This document shows, piece after piece, positions 28,863 to 36,245 of a stretch of 64,000 bases of DNA (position 1 is the stretch's first letter; each line of letters begins with the position of its first letter). Origin of the DNA: Vulcanimicrobiota bacterium (GTDB lineage: Bacteria > Vulcanimicrobiota > Xenobia > Xenobiales > JADMJV01); the NCBI GenBank assembly GCA_050250895.1, contig JBFWNU010000005.1:64001-128000 (forward strand). Reading direction: 5' to 3'. The position numbers were made by a program, and so were the translations under genes. The notes beneath the pieces were generated by a model. The model saw nothing but the letters and a program-made list of their open reading frames with translations. It ran no database searches and was not told the DNA's origin.

Positions 28863-30548
28863 CTACAACTGTTGCAACAACTGGAGCATTGGAGCCAGGG
28901 CGGCCAGGGCGACGAAGCCCGCCACCACCCCTCCTCCCGCCAGGAGAATGGGCTCGAGCAAACGGGCCAGCGCCAGCAAGGCGTCCTGAGCGTCCTCCTC
29001 CAGGCTGGTCGAGGCCCGCATGAGCAACTCCGACAGGTTGCCGGTGGTCATGCCCACCTCGATGATCGAGATCACCATGGGCGGCAGGACCTCGAGACTG
29101 CCGAACGCGGCTGTTACGTCTTCGCCCAGGCCAACCGCCTGGCGCACCCGCCGCAGCTGCCCCTCGACCGCCAGGTTGCCGGCCACTCGCTCGCCCAGAT
29201 CGAGCGAGGCCGTCAGCGGCAGCCCGACGTCGAGAGTCAGACCCATCACATAGACCACCCTGGCCGAGATCATCTTGGCCACCAGGCGACCGACGAGGGG
29301 CATCCGCAAGATAGCCTCGTGCACTCTTCGCCGGATGGCTCGCGAGCGCTGATAGGTCTGGCGAGCAGTGGCCGCCACCATTCCCAGCAGCAGGATCGCT
29401 CCGCTCACCACCAGGGGGTTGCGGGCCAGCCCGCCAAAGGCGACCAGGACGCGGGTGGGCCAGGGCAGTTGGTCGGCCCCGAAGAGGTTAGCGTCCTGCG
29501 AGCAGATGAAGGTGGCGAAGAGCAGGGCCAGCAGCAAGAGCGAGCAGGCCAGGATCACCGGATAGGTCAGCGCGGCGATCACCATTTTCTTCAGTCGCAG
29601 TGCTTGCTCCGAGGCGTCGGCCAGACGGGACAGGGCATAGGTGAGCCGACCCGTCTCTTCGCCCGCCGCCACCAATCCCAGGGCTAACGGGCCGAAGATA
29701 TCGGGGCGCCGGCGCATCGATTGGCTCAAGGAAAAGCCGCTGCTGACTCCCTGGTGGAGCGTCTCCACCAGGCGGTCCAGGTCAGCCTCGCCCGAGTCGC
29801 CCAGCGACTCGAAAGCCCGACTCAGGTTGACTCCGGCCGCGAGCAGGGTGGCCAGGCGGCGATAGAAAGGGGCCATGATCTCGAGAGACAACGAACGTCT
29901 CAGCTGTTCGGGCACCGGTTCGTAATGGGTCCCATAGTCTCGCGAGCGGCCCACCACCTCGACGTTGGTCTGGCCAAACTGAAGGCGTTGCCCGGGAAAG
30001 ACCGGCTCCCAGCTTGAGCCGACCGCTCGCCCGTCACGGCGGGTGCCGTTGGCCGAGCCCAGGTCCTGAACCCAGAGCAGGCCTCCCTTCCAGCGCACCT
30101 CGGCGTGGTTGCGACTGACCCCGCCTCCCACCAGGCAGAGCAGATTGGCCGGGTCGCGACCTATGCCTATGGTGAAGCCGTCTTCCGGCACGCTCACCCG
30201 CTGGCCGTTGGCGGCGACCAATTCGGGGGGCCGAGCGGATGGATCGGGCAAAAAGAAGCTAGCCTCGAGGCTGTTGCCAAAGCGGACCAGAACGCCCGCC
30301 GGGACCTCGGTCCACTGGCCGGGGTTCAGCTTCTTGTCGCTGCAATAGGTGCCGTTGCGAGAGTCGAGATCCCGCATCCAAAGGGTCCCGTCGCGCATCG
30401 TCAACTCGGCGTGGCGACGGCTGATTTGATCCGAGTCAAAGCGCAAACCAGCCTCGAAATCCCGGCCCACGATCAGGTTGGTGGTCGTCTCGGGAATTTC
30501 GAACACCACGCCGCCGGGTAAGGTAAGTCGTGGCCAGCTCGAACTCAC
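28863..30548 (-). CDS. Tandem FHA-FHA domains fused to a PilC/GspF inner-membrane platform protein
   Basis: Two GR...SRxHA...DLxSxNGT FHA motifs; T2SSF motifs RLATLLAAGV, GEETGRL, ALTYP, LLEPILL. Confidence 0.88.
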   Translation of the reverse strand: MSSSWPRLTLPGGVVFEIPETTTNLIVGRDFEAGLRFDSDQISRRHAELTMRDGTLWMRDLDSRNGTYCSDKKLNPGQWTEVPAGVLVRFGNSLEASFFLPDPSARPPELVAANGQRVSVPEDGFTIGIGRDPANLLCLVGGGVSRNHAEVRWKGGLLWVQDLGSANGTRRDGRAVGSSWEPVFPGQRLQFGQTNVEVVGRSRDYGTHYEPVPEQLRRSLSLEIMAPFYRRLATLLAAGVNLSRAFESLGDSGEADLDRLVETLHQGVSSGFSLSQSMRRRPDIFGPLALGLVAAGEETGRLTYALSRLADASEQALRLKKMVIAALTYPVILACSLLLLALLFATFICSQDANLFGADQLPWPTRVLVAFGGLARNPLVVSGAILLLGMVAATARQTYQRSRAIRRRVHEAILRMPLVGRLVAKMISARVVYVMGLTLDVGLPLTASLDLGERVAGNLAVEGQLRRVRQAVGLGEDVTAAFGSLEVLPPMVISIIEVGMTTGNLSELLMRASTSLEEDAQDALLALARLLEPILLAGGGVVAGFVALAALAPMLQLLQQL

Positions 30549-30618
30549 GCTGCCTGCTTCGACGGGCCGGGCGGTTGTCCCCGGGCCGACTGGATGCTAA
30601 ACTCTCAGAGTGTTCGTT

Positions 30619-32508
30619 ATGGGGTCGCGGCGCCGAGGCACGGTCGTCATCGTCAGTTTATTGCTGGTGATGGTGATCGCCCTGATCGGGCGGGCGGCGG
30701 TTGGGCTCGACCCCGGGCTGCTGGCCCTCTCGCGCAGCAGCGCCAATCGTGTGGCTGCCCGGCAGGCGGCCGATTCGGGCCTCGACTATGCCCTCCACCG
30801 GTTGCGCGAGAATCCGACCTGGCGCGGCGACGGCAACGCCACCGTGGTGGATACGCCGGCCCTGACGGTGGTCGAACGAGAGGGTAACGTCGTCGGTTTG
30901 ATCCGTCAGCCCGACGGGCAGGTAAGCCAGTTCAGGATTCGCTTCAACTTTCAGGACGGGCCCGGCGGCGGTGACGGCCTAAACGATCCCCCGTCCGACC
31001 TGCGCATCGACCATCCCTACGTATCCTTGAGCAATCTCGGAAGCGGCAGCATGGCTCCACTTCCCCGCGCCGAAGGAGCAGGCTGGAGTGTAACCGACCC
31101 CAGCGTCGGCCCCGGCAGTGTCCCGCGCCGAGCCGTGGCCGTGCTGGTCGAGGGGCGGGCCGGCAAGGGCTTGCGAGAATTGACGACGGCCGCTCCCAAT
31201 CAGGCTCCCGGCGGGCCTGTCTCGACGGTGGTGGTCGAGGGTGTTTACCACCTTGGCCTCAACCAGGACGTGACCAGTGCGGCCCTGATGGCCGGCTCCA
31301 ACATCGACCTGACCGTGGCCGCCGGGGGACAGACCCTGGTTGCTCTCTACGGCGCCGAGGAGGGAGACCGCCCCCGCCTGCGCGCCAAGGGCTCGGTCAG
31401 TGTCACCAATCCTGACGGGACGCCCGGCGACGTGGTCATGGTCAAGGCCGAAGGCGAGATCGGTCGCAATGCCGGGGCGCCTCCCGGATTTGTGGGCAAT
31501 CTTCGCGGGCTGGGGGCCACGCTAGCCCAAGAGAACGTGGGCGACGGCGCCGATTTCTACAATCTTCAATGGGATGCGGTCTCCAAAGCCTCTCCCGACC
31601 CGGCCGAAAGCGTCCACATCCCCGCCGGCACCTATGTGGTCTGGGACGACAACAGCATTCACTACTACGATATGGGCTTTGACGAATACAAGACTTACAT
31701 GGGCAACCCGGCCAATCATAGCGATGCCGGCACGGCCTTGACCTGGGGCTTTCCCCAGATTCGGGACCCGGCCAACTATTCAGCTTTCGACCGCATCGTG
31801 GTCTGGCCCGAGTACGACGACACGTGCCAATCGATCGGCTTCGATCACGACACCTTTATCGAGCCCTCGGCCCGGGGCGTCACCGACTTCACCGTCATGC
31901 CTCGAGGAGGAGCCCCCTTTCTGCCGGATGACACCACTGAGGTCATTGCCGGGGCGGCCGATTCGTATACCAACAATAATGTCCAGGTTCGCGTGGTGCA
32001 GGCCACCCTCTCGGCGCCAGGTGACGTGCGCATCATGGGACGATTGGTAGGCAGCGCCGGCACCATTACCACCGAAGGTTCCTTTCGTCTGGCAACCCCC
32101 TACGGTAGGATGCAGGGCACGGCCGAAACCAACTATTCCGAGGGCGGGCTCAACCTCTACTCTAAGGGTGATATCGACATTTCGGGCTATCGGGCTTACA
32201 ACAATGACTTTCGCGAGATTAGCTTCCGCGGTCTGATTTACACCTGGGGAGACTTTCGCGCTTATACCGGCCATCCGGACGTGCCCGTCGATCGTTGGGA
32301 CAAGAGTTCGTTCTATGGAGCTGTGGTGGCCTACGGCAGCGAACCCGGAGTCGGCACTCCCGGCAGCAACGGGCTAGGTTCTATCGACATGATGGCTTCC
32401 GAGATCAATCTCTGGAATCACGTCGATAGCGTGACCGACGCCCTCGACATCGCCGCGGCCTCGGCCCCCCAGAGCCTCGAGCGGGCCTATTACACCATCC
32501 ACCAGTAG
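30619..32508 (+). CDS. Large PilX/GspK-like pilin
   Basis: RRRG|TVVIVSLLLVMVIAL lacking E5; ARQAADSGLDYAL...NPTWRG; FRGLIYTWG resembles FQGVIYTNG of 7049-8878. Confidence 0.75.
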   Translation: MGSRRRGTVVIVSLLLVMVIALIGRAAVGLDPGLLALSRSSANRVAARQAADSGLDYALHRLRENPTWRGDGNATVVDTPALTVVEREGNVVGLIRQPDGQVSQFRIRFNFQDGPGGGDGLNDPPSDLRIDHPYVSLSNLGSGSMAPLPRAEGAGWSVTDPSVGPGSVPRRAVAVLVEGRAGKGLRELTTAAPNQAPGGPVSTVVVEGVYHLGLNQDVTSAALMAGSNIDLTVAAGGQTLVALYGAEEGDRPRLRAKGSVSVTNPDGTPGDVVMVKAEGEIGRNAGAPPGFVGNLRGLGATLAQENVGDGADFYNLQWDAVSKASPDPAESVHIPAGTYVVWDDNSIHYYDMGFDEYKTYMGNPANHSDAGTALTWGFPQIRDPANYSAFDRIVVWPEYDDTCQSIGFDHDTFIEPSARGVTDFTVMPRGGAPFLPDDTTEVIAGAADSYTNNNVQVRVVQATLSAPGDVRIMGRLVGSAGTITTEGSFRLATPYGRMQGTAETNYSEGGLNLYSKGDIDISGYRAYNNDFREISFRGLIYTWGDFRAYTGHPDVPVDRWDKSSFYGAVVAYGSEPGVGTPGSNGLGSIDMMASEINLWNHVDSVTDALDIAAASAPQSLERAYYTIHQ

Positions 32509-32603: not shown

Positions 32604-35600
32604 ATGAATCCCGTCGGCACTGGCTCTTCGTCCTCCTCAGAAACCACCCGAACGACCCGGTCCAGGCCCAGCGAAACCTCGCGTCCCGACCGAGATTCCC
32701 GCACCCGCCGTGAGGATGGTGAGGACCGCGTCGAGGTGGGGACCACCCGCAACCGCAACTCGAGCACCACCGCCGAGACTCCGGTGGTGATGGGTAATTC
32801 GAATCAAGAACCGCCTTCCGGTCGCAGCAGCGGCGCCTGGCGGGTGGCCCATCAGGTGGTCAACCGCAACGATCGCGAAGCAGACACCATCGAGGTGCAA
32901 GACGAAGACCGCAATGCCAACGCCGACGAAGAAGAACTCTCCGAGTTCGAGGCCCACGCCGAAACTCTCGAGAACTACTTCGAGGTCTTCGACAACCCCG
33001 GCGGGGGAGGCACCGATGGCACCGCCAGCAACGACGACATCGGGGATATCGCCAGCGGCGACTATGACCGGGACCGGGCTCGTGAGCGTCTGGTCGAGGC
33101 CGGAGTCGACCAGGCCCAGCTCGACGAGACCCTCGATGACATCGAAGCCACCGCCCGTTACTTTGATCAGAACACCGAGTCGCGCGACCGGGTGGATGGT
33201 GGCGACGATGGCGGAGATACCGATGGAAAGATCAGCCGCGGCGACCTGGATGTGGTGCTCGAAGAGACGCGGGAAAATCGCCACCGCGAACTTAGCGACG
33301 AGGATGCGGTCGGGTTACTCGATGAGCACTTCGATGTGCTCGACAACCCGGGCGGGGGCGGAACCGACGGCAAGATCAGCCGCGACGATCTCGAGCACAT
33401 CGCCGAAGGCGACTATGACCGCGACGTTGCCCGCCAGCGTCTGCGCGAAGCGGGCGTGGCCGAAGATCAGCTCAACGCCACCCTGGGCCGCTTAGAGAGC
33501 ACCGCCGATCACCTGCTCGATGACGAGCGCGGTATCTATCGCGACCTCGACATCGCCAACGATGGCGACCGCGATAGCGACGGCGACATCCGGCGTGGCG
33601 ACCTGGACAGGTATCGGCTGGACCATCGCCCCGACCCGGCCGAGGGGCCCAATCCTCTCGAGCCCAGCCAGGCCGAACTCGAAGAAGCGCAAGCGGCCTA
33701 TCAGGTCTTTCAAGAACCCGGGGCCCTCGAAGAGACCCTCGAGGACACCCCGCTAGCCGAACTGACCCAGGGTGAACTGTTGGCCCTGGCCCAGTTGGGC
33801 CAGGACAACCCCGAGGCCGCCGGCCTGCTGCAAGAGGCTGTGCTCGAGTCGGTGGAAGGGGCCGAAAGCCTGGAGCAGCTTCCCCAGGGACTGGGCTATC
33901 AGACCCTGCTGGCCGACCATCTGACCTCGCTCGACCCCGCTCGACTCGACGGCGATCAGACGGCCGCTCGCGAGCATCTCGGCGAACTGGTCCAGGCCGA
34001 CCTCGACGCTCGCCTCGACGAATTGCTCGACGACCGCCGGGGCGACAGCGAGGCCGATCTGGCCATCGACCGCTTCGTCACCGAGCTAGAAGATCTGGCC
34101 GCCACCAACCCGGCCCTGGGAAGCGAGTTGGCGGCTCGAGCCGAACAGACTCTGGCCGGGGCCGGTGACCGCCTGACCGACGTGCGGCGGGCTGACGACT
34201 CGACCTTCAGCAAGATCGGTCACGCTTTTACCGACGGTTTCAACGGCTTGGCCGGGTTTCTAGGCGATCGCCTGCGGGATATCGGCGACCTGGGGGGTCA
34301 GCTTCTGACCGCCCCGCTCCGGGCCTATGGTGAGGTGGCCGATTTCGCCCTCACCCAGGGCGGACGTCTGGCCGGTGGGGCCCTCGACGCGGTGGGAGCC
34401 GATGGGGCGGCGGACTTCGTGCGCGACACCTCGGCTTCGGCTGGCGACGCCGTCAACGGCGCCACCGACTTTGTGGCCGAGCAGCAAGAGAACCTGCTCA
34501 ACGGTTTCGCCGAGGGGGCGGCCGGGGCGGTGGAAGGCATCGCCACTCTGGTTACCAATCCGGTGGGCACGGTCCAGGGCCTGGCCGCCGTGGTCCAGGA
34601 CCCGTCCCTGCTGCTCGAGAGTTACAAGGACGTGTTGCACGAGCACGGCGTGGCCGGCTTGATCGGCAACATCGGGTTTGACGTGGTGGCCACCATCGCC
34701 ACCGGCGGCAGCGGGGCTGCCTCGCGCATCTCGAGTCGCCTGGGCAGTCTGGCCAATCTCACCGATGATCTGGGTCGGCTGGGACGGGCCGGCCGTCTGG
34801 CCGACACCGCCGGCGAACTGGGCACGGTGGCCCGGGTGGCCGACGACCTGGGTGAATTGGGCACAGTGGCTCGGGTGGCCGATGATCTGGGTGAGGCGGG
34901 TACCGTCGCTCGAGTGGCCGAGGCGGCTCCCCGGCCCCGCAGCCGGCGCCCGCTGAGCGAAGACGAACTGGGCGTGCGCCAGCGAGCCAATCAGTATCTC
35001 GACGAAAACTTGGACCAACTGGTAGACGAATACGGCCAGCGCTTCGGCAACATCCTCGACCTCGATAACGCTCGCGAACTGTTCGACGAGTTCGCCGCCA
35101 GTCCCGAGGCCCGCTCGCGCTACGGAACGGCCATCCACGAGCCCTCGAACCGGCTTATCGACGAGGTGTTGGATCGCCGTCTGAGCGGTCCGGTGCGCGA
35201 AGGGGCCGAGCCCGAAGTGGTTTTCACCGCCGGGGGCTCGGGCTCGGGTAAGTCTTCGGCCATCGACGACCTGGGTGGGATCTACGACGATACCGACTTC
35301 GTCTTTGACTCGACCCTGGCCAACTATGACCGTAGTTTGAGCCGGATCGAGCAGGTGCTCGAGTCGGGTCGGGACGTCGAGATTGCCTATGTCTATCGCG
35401 ACCCGGTCGATGCCTTTGTCAACGGCGTGTTACCCCGCGCCGCCGAGACCGGTCGGGCTGTTCCCATCGAAGCCTTCGCCGCCTCGCATCAAAAGGTGGC
35501 CGAGACGGTGGCTCGACTGGCCGAACACTTTGCCGGTGATGAACGTTTTGGCCTGAGCGTCATCGACAATAGTCGGGGCGCGGGTCAGGCCGCGCTCTCG

Positions 35601-35741
35601 ACCTTGGACGATTTGCCCCTGAGAAATATCGATAATCTAACGGAGGTACTGTATGATCAACTGGAACTCGCACTTCAGGAAGGAAGGATTCCACACCATG
35701 TCTACGACGCGATCCTCCGCGAGCGACCCCCCTTCGGATAG
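32604..35741 (+). CDS. Polymorphic-toxin-like protein: EF-hand-like repeats, pre-toxin-like helical region, zeta-toxin-like P-loop kinase C-terminus
   Basis: DNPGGGGTDGKISRDDL repeats; GAVEGI...NPVGTVQGL...DVVATIATGG; FTAGGSGSGKS, DSTL, YVYRDP, RAAETGRAVP, IDNS. Confidence 0.75.
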   Translation: MNPVGTGSSSSSETTRTTRSRPSETSRPDRDSRTRREDGEDRVEVGTTRNRNSSTTAETPVVMGNSNQEPPSGRSSGAWRVAHQVVNRNDREADTIEVQDEDRNANADEEELSEFEAHAETLENYFEVFDNPGGGGTDGTASNDDIGDIASGDYDRDRARERLVEAGVDQAQLDETLDDIEATARYFDQNTESRDRVDGGDDGGDTDGKISRGDLDVVLEETRENRHRELSDEDAVGLLDEHFDVLDNPGGGGTDGKISRDDLEHIAEGDYDRDVARQRLREAGVAEDQLNATLGRLESTADHLLDDERGIYRDLDIANDGDRDSDGDIRRGDLDRYRLDHRPDPAEGPNPLEPSQAELEEAQAAYQVFQEPGALEETLEDTPLAELTQGELLALAQLGQDNPEAAGLLQEAVLESVEGAESLEQLPQGLGYQTLLADHLTSLDPARLDGDQTAAREHLGELVQADLDARLDELLDDRRGDSEADLAIDRFVTELEDLAATNPALGSELAARAEQTLAGAGDRLTDVRRADDSTFSKIGHAFTDGFNGLAGFLGDRLRDIGDLGGQLLTAPLRAYGEVADFALTQGGRLAGGALDAVGADGAADFVRDTSASAGDAVNGATDFVAEQQENLLNGFAEGAAGAVEGIATLVTNPVGTVQGLAAVVQDPSLLLESYKDVLHEHGVAGLIGNIGFDVVATIATGGSGAASRISSRLGSLANLTDDLGRLGRAGRLADTAGELGTVARVADDLGELGTVARVADDLGEAGTVARVAEAAPRPRSRRPLSEDELGVRQRANQYLDENLDQLVDEYGQRFGNILDLDNARELFDEFAASPEARSRYGTAIHEPSNRLIDEVLDRRLSGPVREGAEPEVVFTAGGSGSGKSSAIDDLGGIYDDTDFVFDSTLANYDRSLSRIEQVLESGRDVEIAYVYRDPVDAFVNGVLPRAAETGRAVPIEAFAASHQKVAETVARLAEHFAGDERFGLSVIDNSRGAGQAALSTLDDLPLRNIDNLTEVLYDQLELALQEGRIPHHVYDAILRERPPFG
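34761..34916 (+). repeat. Four 39-bp (13-aa) tandem repeats
   Basis: TDDLGRLGRAGRL / ADTAGELGTVARV / ADDLGELGTVARV / ADDLGEAGTVARV. Confidence 0.9.
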
Positions 35742-35862
35742 CAAGGCCGAGCGGCGCCAACGCCGTCAGGAAAAGATGTTGGCGGCCCTCAACGCCGCGG
35801 CCGTCGAATCGGTGCAGCTGAGTGATGCCGCCAAGCAAGAGGCCGAGAAGAAGAAAGATTAG
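35698..35862 (+). CDS. Small helical protein overlapping the toxin-like gene; candidate immunity/antitoxin
   Basis: ATG 35698 preceded by GGAAGGA; MSTTRSS...KAERRQRRQEKMLAALNAAAVESVQLSDAAKQEAEKKKD. Confidence 0.5.
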   Translation: MSTTRSSASDPPSDSKAERRQRRQEKMLAALNAAAVESVQLSDAAKQEAEKKKD

Positions 35863-36245
35863 CGGCCGAGGTAGTAGTGAAGAGTTTCGCTCTCTTCGTG
35901 AGTCAGGTTGCGAAACTCCACCCCCGCGCGGTAGCCACCTTCGTGTTGCCAGACGCACCAGGCAAAGCGGCCGGTCAAGACCAGTTCTCGTTGCCCGAGT
36001 TCGAGGGTGATGGGGATTTCGATGCCCACCGGCAGCGGCTGAGATGAACTGATGCGCATTCCGGTGGCCGAGAGATTCTCGGTGGTCGTGATGTAGGAGG
36101 GCAGACCCAGCGAGCGGACGTTGACGCTGACTTCGTGGCGCTCGGCCCGCGGGGTGAGCAACCAGGCTTCAAGTTTTTGCAGGGTTTCGCTGGGCTCGGG
36201 TGGGGCCGGGAAGAACCTTCGGGTGATCGTCTGCATCCAGTTCAT
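35859..36245 (-). CDS. Single-domain PilZ protein (c-di-GMP receptor)
   Basis: RAERH (RxxxR-like) and NLSATG (D/NxSxxG); YRAGVEF. Confidence 0.85.
   Translation of the reverse strand: MNWMQTITRRFFPAPPEPSETLQKLEAWLLTPRAERHEVSVNVRSLGLPSYITTTENLSATGMRISSSQPLPVGIEIPITLELGQRELVLTGRFAWCVWQHEGGYRAGVEFRNLTHEESETLHYYLGR

Follow-up and report, generated by a model that had tools for sequence, protein, structure and literature searches.

A zeta-type kinase in the rewired ng_zeta1 order as the C-terminal tip of a putative modular toxin from a large-genome member of the Eremiobacterota

Background

Zeta kinases are mostly known as plasmid-addiction or chromosomal toxins, and the locus described here raises the question of what such a kinase is doing at the very end of a long, multi-part protein, and whether a tiny open reading frame (ORF) that overlaps the end of its gene could encode the antidote. 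The locus lies in a 64,000-nt stretch of DNA (hereafter the window; all positions are counted from its first letter) from an uncultured Vulcanimicrobiota bacterium of sludge (assembly GCA_050250895.1, contig JBFWNU010000005.1, positions 64,001 to 128,000 of the forward strand). An initial annotation of the stretch had read the long protein, P0001, as an exported polymorphic-toxin-like effector tipped with an apparently permuted zeta-toxin-like kinase, and the ORF of 54 amino acids (aa), P0002, as a new immunity gene rather than part of a classical toxin-antitoxin module; all of the motifs that it quoted were located in the sequences of the two proteins. The answer that we consider probable, while leaving real room for doubt, is that P0001 is a member of a lineage-restricted modular (polymorphic-type) toxin family of large-genome Eremiobacterota.

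Results

The C-terminal domain of P0001 is a zeta-type P-loop kinase, as had been read from its motifs. The Pfam family Zeta_toxin (PF06414) matched it with an E-value of 1e-13 and 51.6 bits against a cut-off of 22.3, and the match took in only positions 96-178 of the 199 in the profile, i.e. the C-terminal half, as a block swap would produce. In a phmmer search of the PDB, aa 791-976 were collinear with residues 22-206 of ng_zeta1 (6EPH_B, E 1.5e-7), and a kinase model obtained with AlphaFold 2 (AF2) from a 30-row alignment, with a mean predicted local distance difference test score (pLDDT) of 95.2, was placed by Foldseek on ng_zeta1 with a query-normalised template modelling (TM) score of 0.82-0.83 and a root-mean-square deviation of ~3 Å. 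The classical zeta toxins (TM 0.46-0.47) and the two proteins that the initial annotation had named for comparison, PezT (0.42) and AvrRxo1 (0.41-0.43), fitted far more poorly. The permuted order is real, in that the block with the catalytic Asp precedes the Walker A motif; however, it is not new, as the identical swap of two sequence blocks has been published for ng_zeta1 of N. gonorrhoeae (Rocker et al. 2018, PMC5923241).

The residues expected of an active enzyme are in place. In the phmmer alignment Asp821 corresponds to ng_zeta1 Asp56, Lys883 to Lys115, and Arg945 and Arg951 to Arg175 and Arg181, which are described in ng_zeta1 as the proposed catalytic base, the P-loop lysine and a phosphate-binding patch, respectively (PMC5923241), and none of the four varies among the 30 aligned homologs. 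Kinase activity of P0001 is likely, judging from these residues. A HMMER scan of 1.84 billion cluster representatives returned 2527 proteins with the domain at E<=0.001, 435 of them at E<=1e-30. P0004, P0005 and P0006 are 58-67% identical to the P0001 kinase and carry the domain at their C-termini, while the remaining proteins among the best 150 have 33-44% identity. A curated phage collection held a single relative (30.5% identity) and a curated plasmid collection six (~27%).

What precedes the kinase is a carrier that occurs with other tips. In the 9.5-Mb genome of P0001 the zeta domain is single-copy, and the carrier, with aa 351-779 as the query, has three paralogs: a protein of 871 aa with an AvrB_AvrC tip (E 2e-19), one of 652 aa with an unnamed tip (G000:C4:507590-509548; L005 790..2748), and one of 824 aa with an FHA domain plus an unnamed tip. 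A collection of 5.8 billion proteins yielded 13 further carrier homologs, of which 2 carry Zeta_toxin, 1 carries AvrB_AvrC and 10 are without a Pfam family. In an 18-row alignment of the family, similarity reaches as far as FDV..T.ATGG and is followed by differing repeat linkers and then by at least five kinds of tip, namely zeta, AvrB-like, HExxH (P0171), FHA plus unknown, and a shared unnamed domain; additional carrier loci have AvrB-like and FHA10-like tips. Thus the expectation that the same N-terminal part would be found with other C-termini was confirmed by the 3 paralogs and 13 homologs, and the architecture is that of a polymorphic toxin with swappable C-termini. The unnamed tip domain, of ~250 aa, is common to P0161-P0168 and the 652-aa paralog, has no Pfam family, shows the motifs GxY..A.D, N..DR and GG..Q, and is likely an undescribed toxin domain.

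The distribution of the family is narrow and patchy. Of 200 other genomes sampled from the phylum, 11 had the carrier; all of these belong to three families within a single class, and their genomes measure 5-9 Mb (5/15 in family f1, 4/5 in f3, 2/3 in f4 and 0/177 elsewhere), and the zeta tip was found in 0/200. In a genome of the same genus (G088) the TPR and PilZ neighbours are kept, with other genes at the position of the toxin. Together, the patchy occurrence of the carrier and of the zeta tip and the toxin-free locus in G088 mark P0001 as accessory and as a recently assembled member of a family restricted to this lineage. NCBI assigns one small-ORF homolog and one carrier homolog to metagenome-assembled genomes of Candidatus Eremiobacterota.

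The carrier consists of a compact helical domain followed by long Gly/Ala-rich helices; the AF2 model had pLDDT >90 for aa 351-530 and 50-70 for the long helices. Nothing informative was found for this model in the PDB, Foldseek giving no match at E<=0.001, and the best VIA-align match (Z 8.8, covering 56 residues within a long helix) was discarded as generic. At the end of the carrier, 4 orthologs all share T700, G701 and G702, and the two glycines hardly vary among the 18 members of the family. The two highest Kyte-Doolittle 19-residue windows of P0001, aa 682-700 (1.48) and aa 646-664 (1.42), both lie in the Gly/Ala hairpin of aa 634-702, and one could speculate from this composition that the hairpin is membrane-active. 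The closing ATGG recalls the pre-toxin domain PT-TG (PF14449), to which the carrier may be remotely related; hmmscan gave no PT-TG match on P0001 at E<=1, and a six-frame search of the genome with the PT-TG hidden Markov model, also at E<=1, hit two unrelated places and no member of the carrier family. Leads from Atlas features (PT-TG 0.81, MafB 0.80, EndoU 0.79) were below trust level and were set aside. The 'broken-hairpin' domain, as described in PMC12419801, was ruled out as well, being a short beta-hairpin that lies C-terminal to toxins; the carrier is helical.

Between carrier and kinase lies a linker of short repeats, and in other members of the family the equivalent place is taken by repeat linkers that differ in sequence and length. 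Just before the kinase, R777, P778, R779, R781 and R782 of a basic RxRR motif are invariant in the 4 aligned zeta-tipped orthologs, a fifth member (P0169) having TRR only, and it is a matter of speculation that the motif serves as a processing site.

At the other end of the protein, the first 100 residues contain 15 Ser, 15 Arg and 13 Thr and no hydrophobic stretch, the highest Kyte-Doolittle 19-residue mean being -0.54 (judged by hydropathy alone). Since the ATG at 32604 is the first start codon after the upstream stop, no Sec-type h-region is concealed upstream. P0001 begins with MNPVGTGS, which agrees, as we read the alignment, with a loose family motif M-x-x-x-[IV]-[GS]. Most N-termini of the carrier family follow the pattern M-x-x-x-[IV]-[GS]-x-[GN] and continue with a basic, Ser-rich stretch (MGLDIGTGG, MALEVGTGG, MAVISGDSG, MTVVSGNNS and MAFGINGF are examples). 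This shared motif may be the export signal of some unrecognised system. Both acidic modules that follow in P0001 match one module of a 475-aa protein with a HEFGH metallopeptidase motif from the same genome, and the number of module copies differs among the aligned orthologs. Pfam returned no EF-hand match on P0001; from their DxDxDG loops the modules may nonetheless bind calcium.

The 54-aa ORF was found to overlap the stop of the toxin gene by 44 nt, as first reported. It occupies the entire gap up to a convergent gene for a PilZ-domain protein (35859..36245, - strand), and a longer reading of 69 aa from an ATG at 35653 is available. A promoter scan that included the weak match listed in Table 1 found 2 sites in 4.6 kb, where 0.5 were expected. 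Outside the overlap, its 117 nt have GC contents of 0.72/0.38/0.77 at codon positions 1/2/3 and a strong 3-base periodicity (for comparison, the gene-like toxin gene has 0.75/0.46/0.76). Under a codon model trained on 800 long ORFs these 117 nt scored 24.3 bits, compared with 16.2 +/- 7.3 for real coding windows (n=2092), a score reached by 0.8% of 4621 open windows outside long ORFs. Four predicted proteins are homologous to the small ORF at 77-94% identity, two of which, P0156 and P0157, have in common an in-frame deletion of one codon. No relative was found in Pfam, NCBIfam or the PDB. Contigs of 4 sequencing runs from 4 studies were compared with the locus, no RNA run being among those listed for it. 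Some of these contigs bridge the toxin 3' end, the small ORF and the PilZ gene, and they do so free of indels, X2 record 13 (35493-36097) with 45 differences and X10 record 8 (35654-35918) with 14. Scans of metagenome and genome contigs with the family alignment gave 1 and 2 loci, none of them from P0004, P0005, P0006 or P0169. The view that the small ORF is coding and conserved is supported by coding statistics and by four close homologs; its conservation, on the other hand, is seen in close relatives only.

A predicted complex of the kinase and P0002 had an interaction score (ipSAE, interaction prediction score from aligned errors) of 0.84, the best of 3 controls reaching 0.51, and passed a mark that was reached by 58/80 solved complexes and by 2/110 mismatched pairs. 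In three runs at least 91% of the contacts agreed and the pLDDT of the partner was at least 61. In the model, residues 16-36 of P0002 lie on one face of the central sheet, on the P-loop (G882, K883) and on the helix after the P-loop. The 54-aa ORF probably codes for an antidote of the P0001 kinase, and an immunity role is plausible. Downstream ORFs also abut two of the three carrier paralogs, which fits a toxin-immunity layout. One of these is a 154-aa ORF (G000:C10:~202989-203453) with an ATGA overlap at the stop of the FHA-tipped paralog; the other is a 371-aa ORF (G000:C4:~509548-510663) that starts at the stop of the paralog with the unknown tip and is followed by an acidic ORF of 208 aa. 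All three are candidate immunity genes.

The coordinates of the features are collected in Table 1. P0001 is surrounded by pilus, TPR and PilZ genes of the chromosome, and the 10 neighbours scanned include none of phage or conjugation type. Directly upstream, ending 96 nt before the toxin gene, is a gene (30610..32508, + strand) whose 632-aa product matches PilX_N weakly and has a pilin-like helix at its N-terminus. The kinase forms the last 260 aa of a 1045-aa protein whose upstream neighbour is a PilX_N-like protein, and the initial annotation was right in not regarding it as a classical toxin-antitoxin module. Another gene of polymorphic-toxin type, for a 1707-aa RHS-repeat protein with a YD-shell match, lies 6 kb upstream of P0001 (21142..26265, - strand).

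Table 1. Features of the toxin gene and of the overlapping small ORF, by position in the window
Feature	Position	Strand	Basis or remark
Toxin gene, P0001	32604..35741	+	ORF reading; 1045 aa
Disordered S/T/R-rich N-terminus, aa 1-115	32604..32948	+	hydropathy, composition
Two acidic modules of ~100 aa, aa ~118-225 and ~236-345	32955..33638	+	EF-hand/dockerin-like DxDxDGxIxxxD loops
Carrier region, aa 351-702, ending FDVVATIATGG	33654..34709	+	paralogs, database homologs, genome survey
Gly/Ala two-helix segment, aa 634-702, most hydrophobic part of P0001	34503..34709	+	Kyte-Doolittle
Linker of 13-aa repeats, GELGTVARVADDL, 2.7 copies	34815..34921	+	Tandem Repeats Finder; 39-nt unit
Basic RPRSRR motif (RxRR), just N-terminal of the kinase domain	34932..34949	+	ortholog alignment
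ng_zeta1-type zeta-toxin kinase domain, aa 786-1045	34959..35738	+	Pfam, phmmer, AF2, Foldseek
Catalytic Asp821	35064-35066	+	alignment to ng_zeta1
Walker A, GGSGSGKS, aa 877-884	35232-35255	+	sequence
Sigma-70-like promoter match in the 3' end of the toxin gene, 41 nt ahead of ATG 35698	35629..35657	+	weak
Shine-Dalgarno-like run, GGAAGGAAGGA	35678..35688	+	sequence; ends 9 nt ahead of ATG 35698
54-aa ORF, P0002, candidate immunity/antitoxin	35698..35862	+	44-nt overlap with the toxin gene

Discussion

The findings can be assembled into the following scheme. A constant part, made up of the disordered N-terminus, optional acidic modules with loops like those that bind calcium, a helical carrier of ~350 aa that closes with the Gly/Ala hairpin and ATGG, and a repeat linker, would carry interchangeable C-terminal enzymes, the tip in P0001 being the topologically rewired kinase of the ng_zeta1 type. 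Lacking a Sec signal, P0001 would fold in the cytoplasm of the producer, where the 54-aa product, through a helix at residues ~16-36, would silence the kinase by lying over the sheet and the P-loop. Once in a target cell, the tip would use ATP to phosphorylate a nucleotide-linked small molecule. Our best guess for the substrate would be a UDP-sugar cell-wall precursor, an NAD-type substrate being possible; AvrRxo1, a related kinase, has NAD-kinase activity. The identity of the domain, its collinearity with ng_zeta1, the conserved catalytic residues and the swapping of tips are observed directly; export, toxicity, the target, the substrate and inhibition by P0002 are our inferences.

A number of observations weigh against this scheme, and many of them concern delivery. 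Zeta_toxin was the sole Pfam match on P0001, which leaves it with no trafficking domain by that search; no export signal was found by Pfam or hydropathy; and searches of the genome for TssC, of the type VI secretion system (T6SS), and for WXG100, of the type VII secretion system (T7SS), gave no match. The two full FHIPEP (FlhA/SctV) genes of the genome lie in two separate flagellar clusters, and injectisome delivery was rejected on that ground. A further eight ORFs of the genome, on contigs C1, C6, C7 and C8, match only the cytoplasmic C-terminal half of FHIPEP (positions ~322-656).

The choice of substrate is open to objection as well. Two residues of ng_zeta1, Lys59 and Asn75, are described as contacting the carboxyethyl group of UNAM (MurNAc) (PMC5923241). 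Lys59 is conservatively replaced by Arg824 in P0001; the counterpart of Asn75 is Gly841, a Gly that is invariant in 4 orthologs, and because of this replacement the substrate specificity may differ from that of ng_zeta1 even where kinase activity is likely. Moreover, among the best 150 kinase relatives the domain is internal to large proteins (median 1546 aa) in 107, the others being proteins of <=450 aa (21) or having the domain at the C-terminus (20) or the N-terminus (2). Because most close relatives of the kinase sit in giant proteins of phages and conjugative elements, the UDP-sugar substrate is a guess. A Pfam scan that covered 25 of these 150 found ART-PolyVal with LPD22 and DUF3293, or ddrB-ParB, in the large relatives; in relatives outside the P0001 family that have the kinase at the C-terminus, it found a phage portal with Acb1, a portal with inorganic pyrophosphatase (InPase), or NUDIX (P0058, P0119, P0136, P0008 and P0016 are examples of such fusions). 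Acb1, which acts against the cyclic-oligonucleotide-based antiphage signalling system (anti-CBASS), and the other fusions hint at a counter-defence role in injected phage and plasmid proteins. Giant polyvalent proteins of this sort, reportedly conceived as such by Iyer and colleagues in 2017, are thought to be injected by phages and conjugative elements, and the kinase type is, on that interpretation, common among them.

As for the small protein, a profile search for distant homologs found none beyond the same 4 proteins; since these are confined to close relatives, conservation is not separable from recency, and the amino-acid changes are not obviously fewer than the divergence of the local DNA predicts. 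The helix of P0002 is somewhat sticky, given that the control score of 0.51 was obtained with P0002 kept and the kinase replaced, and the success of the complex model may in part reflect memory, as the ng_epsilon1/ng_zeta1 complex is solved in the PDB.

How P0001 might leave the cell has one tentative answer in the carrier itself, which could be an undescribed delivery module, either self-sufficient or linked to a pilus; in that case the helix of P0002 would represent a zeta-kinase inhibitor of a new, minimal class. The parts of the module, with no more assurance, would be the N-terminal M-x-x-x-[IV]-[GS], the basic disordered stretch, the calcium-loop modules, the helical domain and the Gly/Ala hairpin ending in ATGG. 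Both the zeta locus and the locus with the AvrB tip have a T2SSF gene no more than 10 kb away. However, the genome shows an extreme expansion of type IV filament genes, with 149 T2SSF (GspF/PilC) matches above the Pfam cut-off, i.e. ~75 platform genes, so that adjacency to T2SSF means little; with a chance probability of ~0.2 (a rough estimate) for 2/5 loci, the pilus- or T2SS-like neighbourhood was rejected as evidence. The T2SSF copy in the window (28863..30548, - strand) is fused to two FHA domains.

Other explanations of the locus have to be weighed against a modular toxin with its own antidote. One of them, which we hold unlikely, is that the 54-aa ORF is no gene, only a chance open frame between convergent genes, and that the kinase is kept in check otherwise, by folding after export or by inhibition from the carrier. 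At the local GC content about 1 in 3 frames of 39 codons would be open anyway (a rough estimate), the antisense frame is open as well, a 44-nt overlap is unusually long, and the confinement of the homologs to close relatives fits such a frame too. It would be harder to reconcile with a codon score above the coding mean that so few open non-genic windows reach, with the 3-base periodicity in GC and the Shine-Dalgarno-like motif, with the in-frame deletion common to P0156 and P0157, and with the complex model passing its mark; furthermore, the variable positions of the small protein, 21-22, are outside the modelled interface.

More far-reaching, and to our mind improbable, is the idea that P0001 is an effector against eukaryotic cells, such as protists or other sludge-dwelling hosts. 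The small protein would in that case serve solely as an antitoxin or chaperone in the producer, in the way that Arc1 does for AvrRxo1. AvrB_AvrC is a domain family known from effectors of plant pathogens, and its presence among the sister tips, the structural relationship of the kinase to AvrRxo1 and the RxRR that precedes the kinase domain in 4/5 zeta-tipped members all lend the idea some appeal, as does the predatory lifestyle that has been proposed for large-genome marine Eremiobacterota (PMC9259500). Yet the fold of the kinase is nearer to the bactericidal ng_zeta1 (TM 0.82) than to AvrRxo1 (0.43), the two full FlhA/SctV loci, which could have signalled an injectisome, are both flagellar, and ORFs abutting two of the three carrier paralogs downstream are typical of toxin-immunity pairs. 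The locus could also be an intracellular conflict module that is never exported, in which the N-terminal part would sense an invader such as a phage and release the kinase, leading to abortive infection, and the small protein would be the antitoxin; we think this quite improbable. Zeta kinases are, after all, classical intracellular toxins, the closest relatives of the kinase domain are proteins of phages and conjugative elements, and the searches with Pfam, TssC, WXG100, FHIPEP and hydropathy identified no secretion signal or system for P0001. However, Pfam and fold searches showed no NTPase, nuclease or known sensor domain in the carrier, the calcium-loop-like modules would point to an extracellular setting, and the hallmark of exported polymorphic toxins is just such a layout, in which the N-terminal part is constant, the tip varies, and a repeat linker and a TGG motif come ahead of the tip.

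What is new about P0001 is a carrier family without a recognisable delivery signal, the first tip of the ng_zeta1 type on such a carrier, and an orphan candidate inhibitor of 54 aa; the block swap, known from ng_zeta1, and the presence of zeta kinases among the effectors of polymorphic toxins were known before. Studies of the rewired type have so far been confined to a gonococcal toxin-antitoxin pair; here it would be an interchangeable warhead of a large modular protein in an uncultured phylum. The kinase type also recurs in many injected proteins of phages and plasmids and thereby connects three arenas of conflict, and the question arises as to which substrates it phosphorylates. Moreover, with no export signal, T6SS or T7SS markers or injectisome locus found, the carrier family offers a handle on toxin delivery in the Eremiobacterota.

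Comparison with known systems

P0001 resembles the polymorphic toxin systems, as they are described in PMC3482391 and PMC12419801, in its layout, with a swappable C-terminal toxin joined by a linker to a constant N-terminal part and with a putative small gene next to it. It differs in that those systems have known trafficking and pre-toxin modules, whereas none was detected in P0001 by Pfam or the PT-TG search. Burroughs et al. 2025 (PMC12419801) list zeta toxin-kinases among the effector domains of polymorphic toxins and allied systems, and the available text of Zhang et al. 2012 (PMC3482391) makes no use of the word 'zeta'.

The nearest sequence relatives of the kinase outside the orthologs are the kinase modules of polyvalent proteins, with 35-43% identity over the whole domain. 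In those proteins the kinase occurs together with ART-PolyVal, LPD22 or ddrB-ParB, whereas P0001 is without these and has the kinase at its extreme C-terminus. The polyvalent proteins of phages and conjugative elements combine several enzymatic or anti-defence domains on a mobile element; P0001 has a single enzymatic domain.

Classical zeta and PezT (PDB 1GVN, 3Q8X, 2P5T), which are UDP-GlcNAc 3'-kinases, belong to the same P-loop kinase superfamily and have the catalytic set of Asp, Lys and Arg in common with P0001. Their block order, however, is swapped relative to P0001, and the three-helix antitoxin epsilon or PezA that is encoded upstream of them has no equivalent at P0001. AvrRxo1-ORF1 of Xanthomonas (PDB 4Z8V and related entries) is related to the kinase in structure (Foldseek E 2e-4), and it too is a zeta-like kinase in the role of a delivered effector, with a binding partner, ORF2 (Arc1), encoded downstream. 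AvrRxo1, though, has the classical block order and is delivered by an injectisome, whereas P0001 has the rewired order and no injectisome locus was seen in its genome.

The closest likeness is to ng_zeta1 (PDB 6EPG, 6EPH, 6EPI), in which the block with the catalytic Asp stands ahead of the P-loop in the same rewired order, even though identity to the P0001 kinase is just ~21%. The gonococcal protein stands alone, while the P0001 kinase sits behind a carrier of 785 aa. It also has a C-terminal OB-fold domain that is missing from P0001, which ends ~7 residues past the kinase fold; since this domain is reported as confined to the gonococcal protein and one Eikenella homolog (PMC5923241), it is not a strict criterion for the ng_zeta1 subclass. 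The candidate inhibitor P0002 is encoded downstream, in overlap with the toxin gene, and resembles no PDB chain in sequence. Nevertheless, the antitoxin ng_epsilon1, a small and non-globular helical peptide, is described as covering the ATP site of ng_zeta1 (PMC5923241), and it is this arrangement that the modelled position of P0002 over the P-loop of P0001 resembles.

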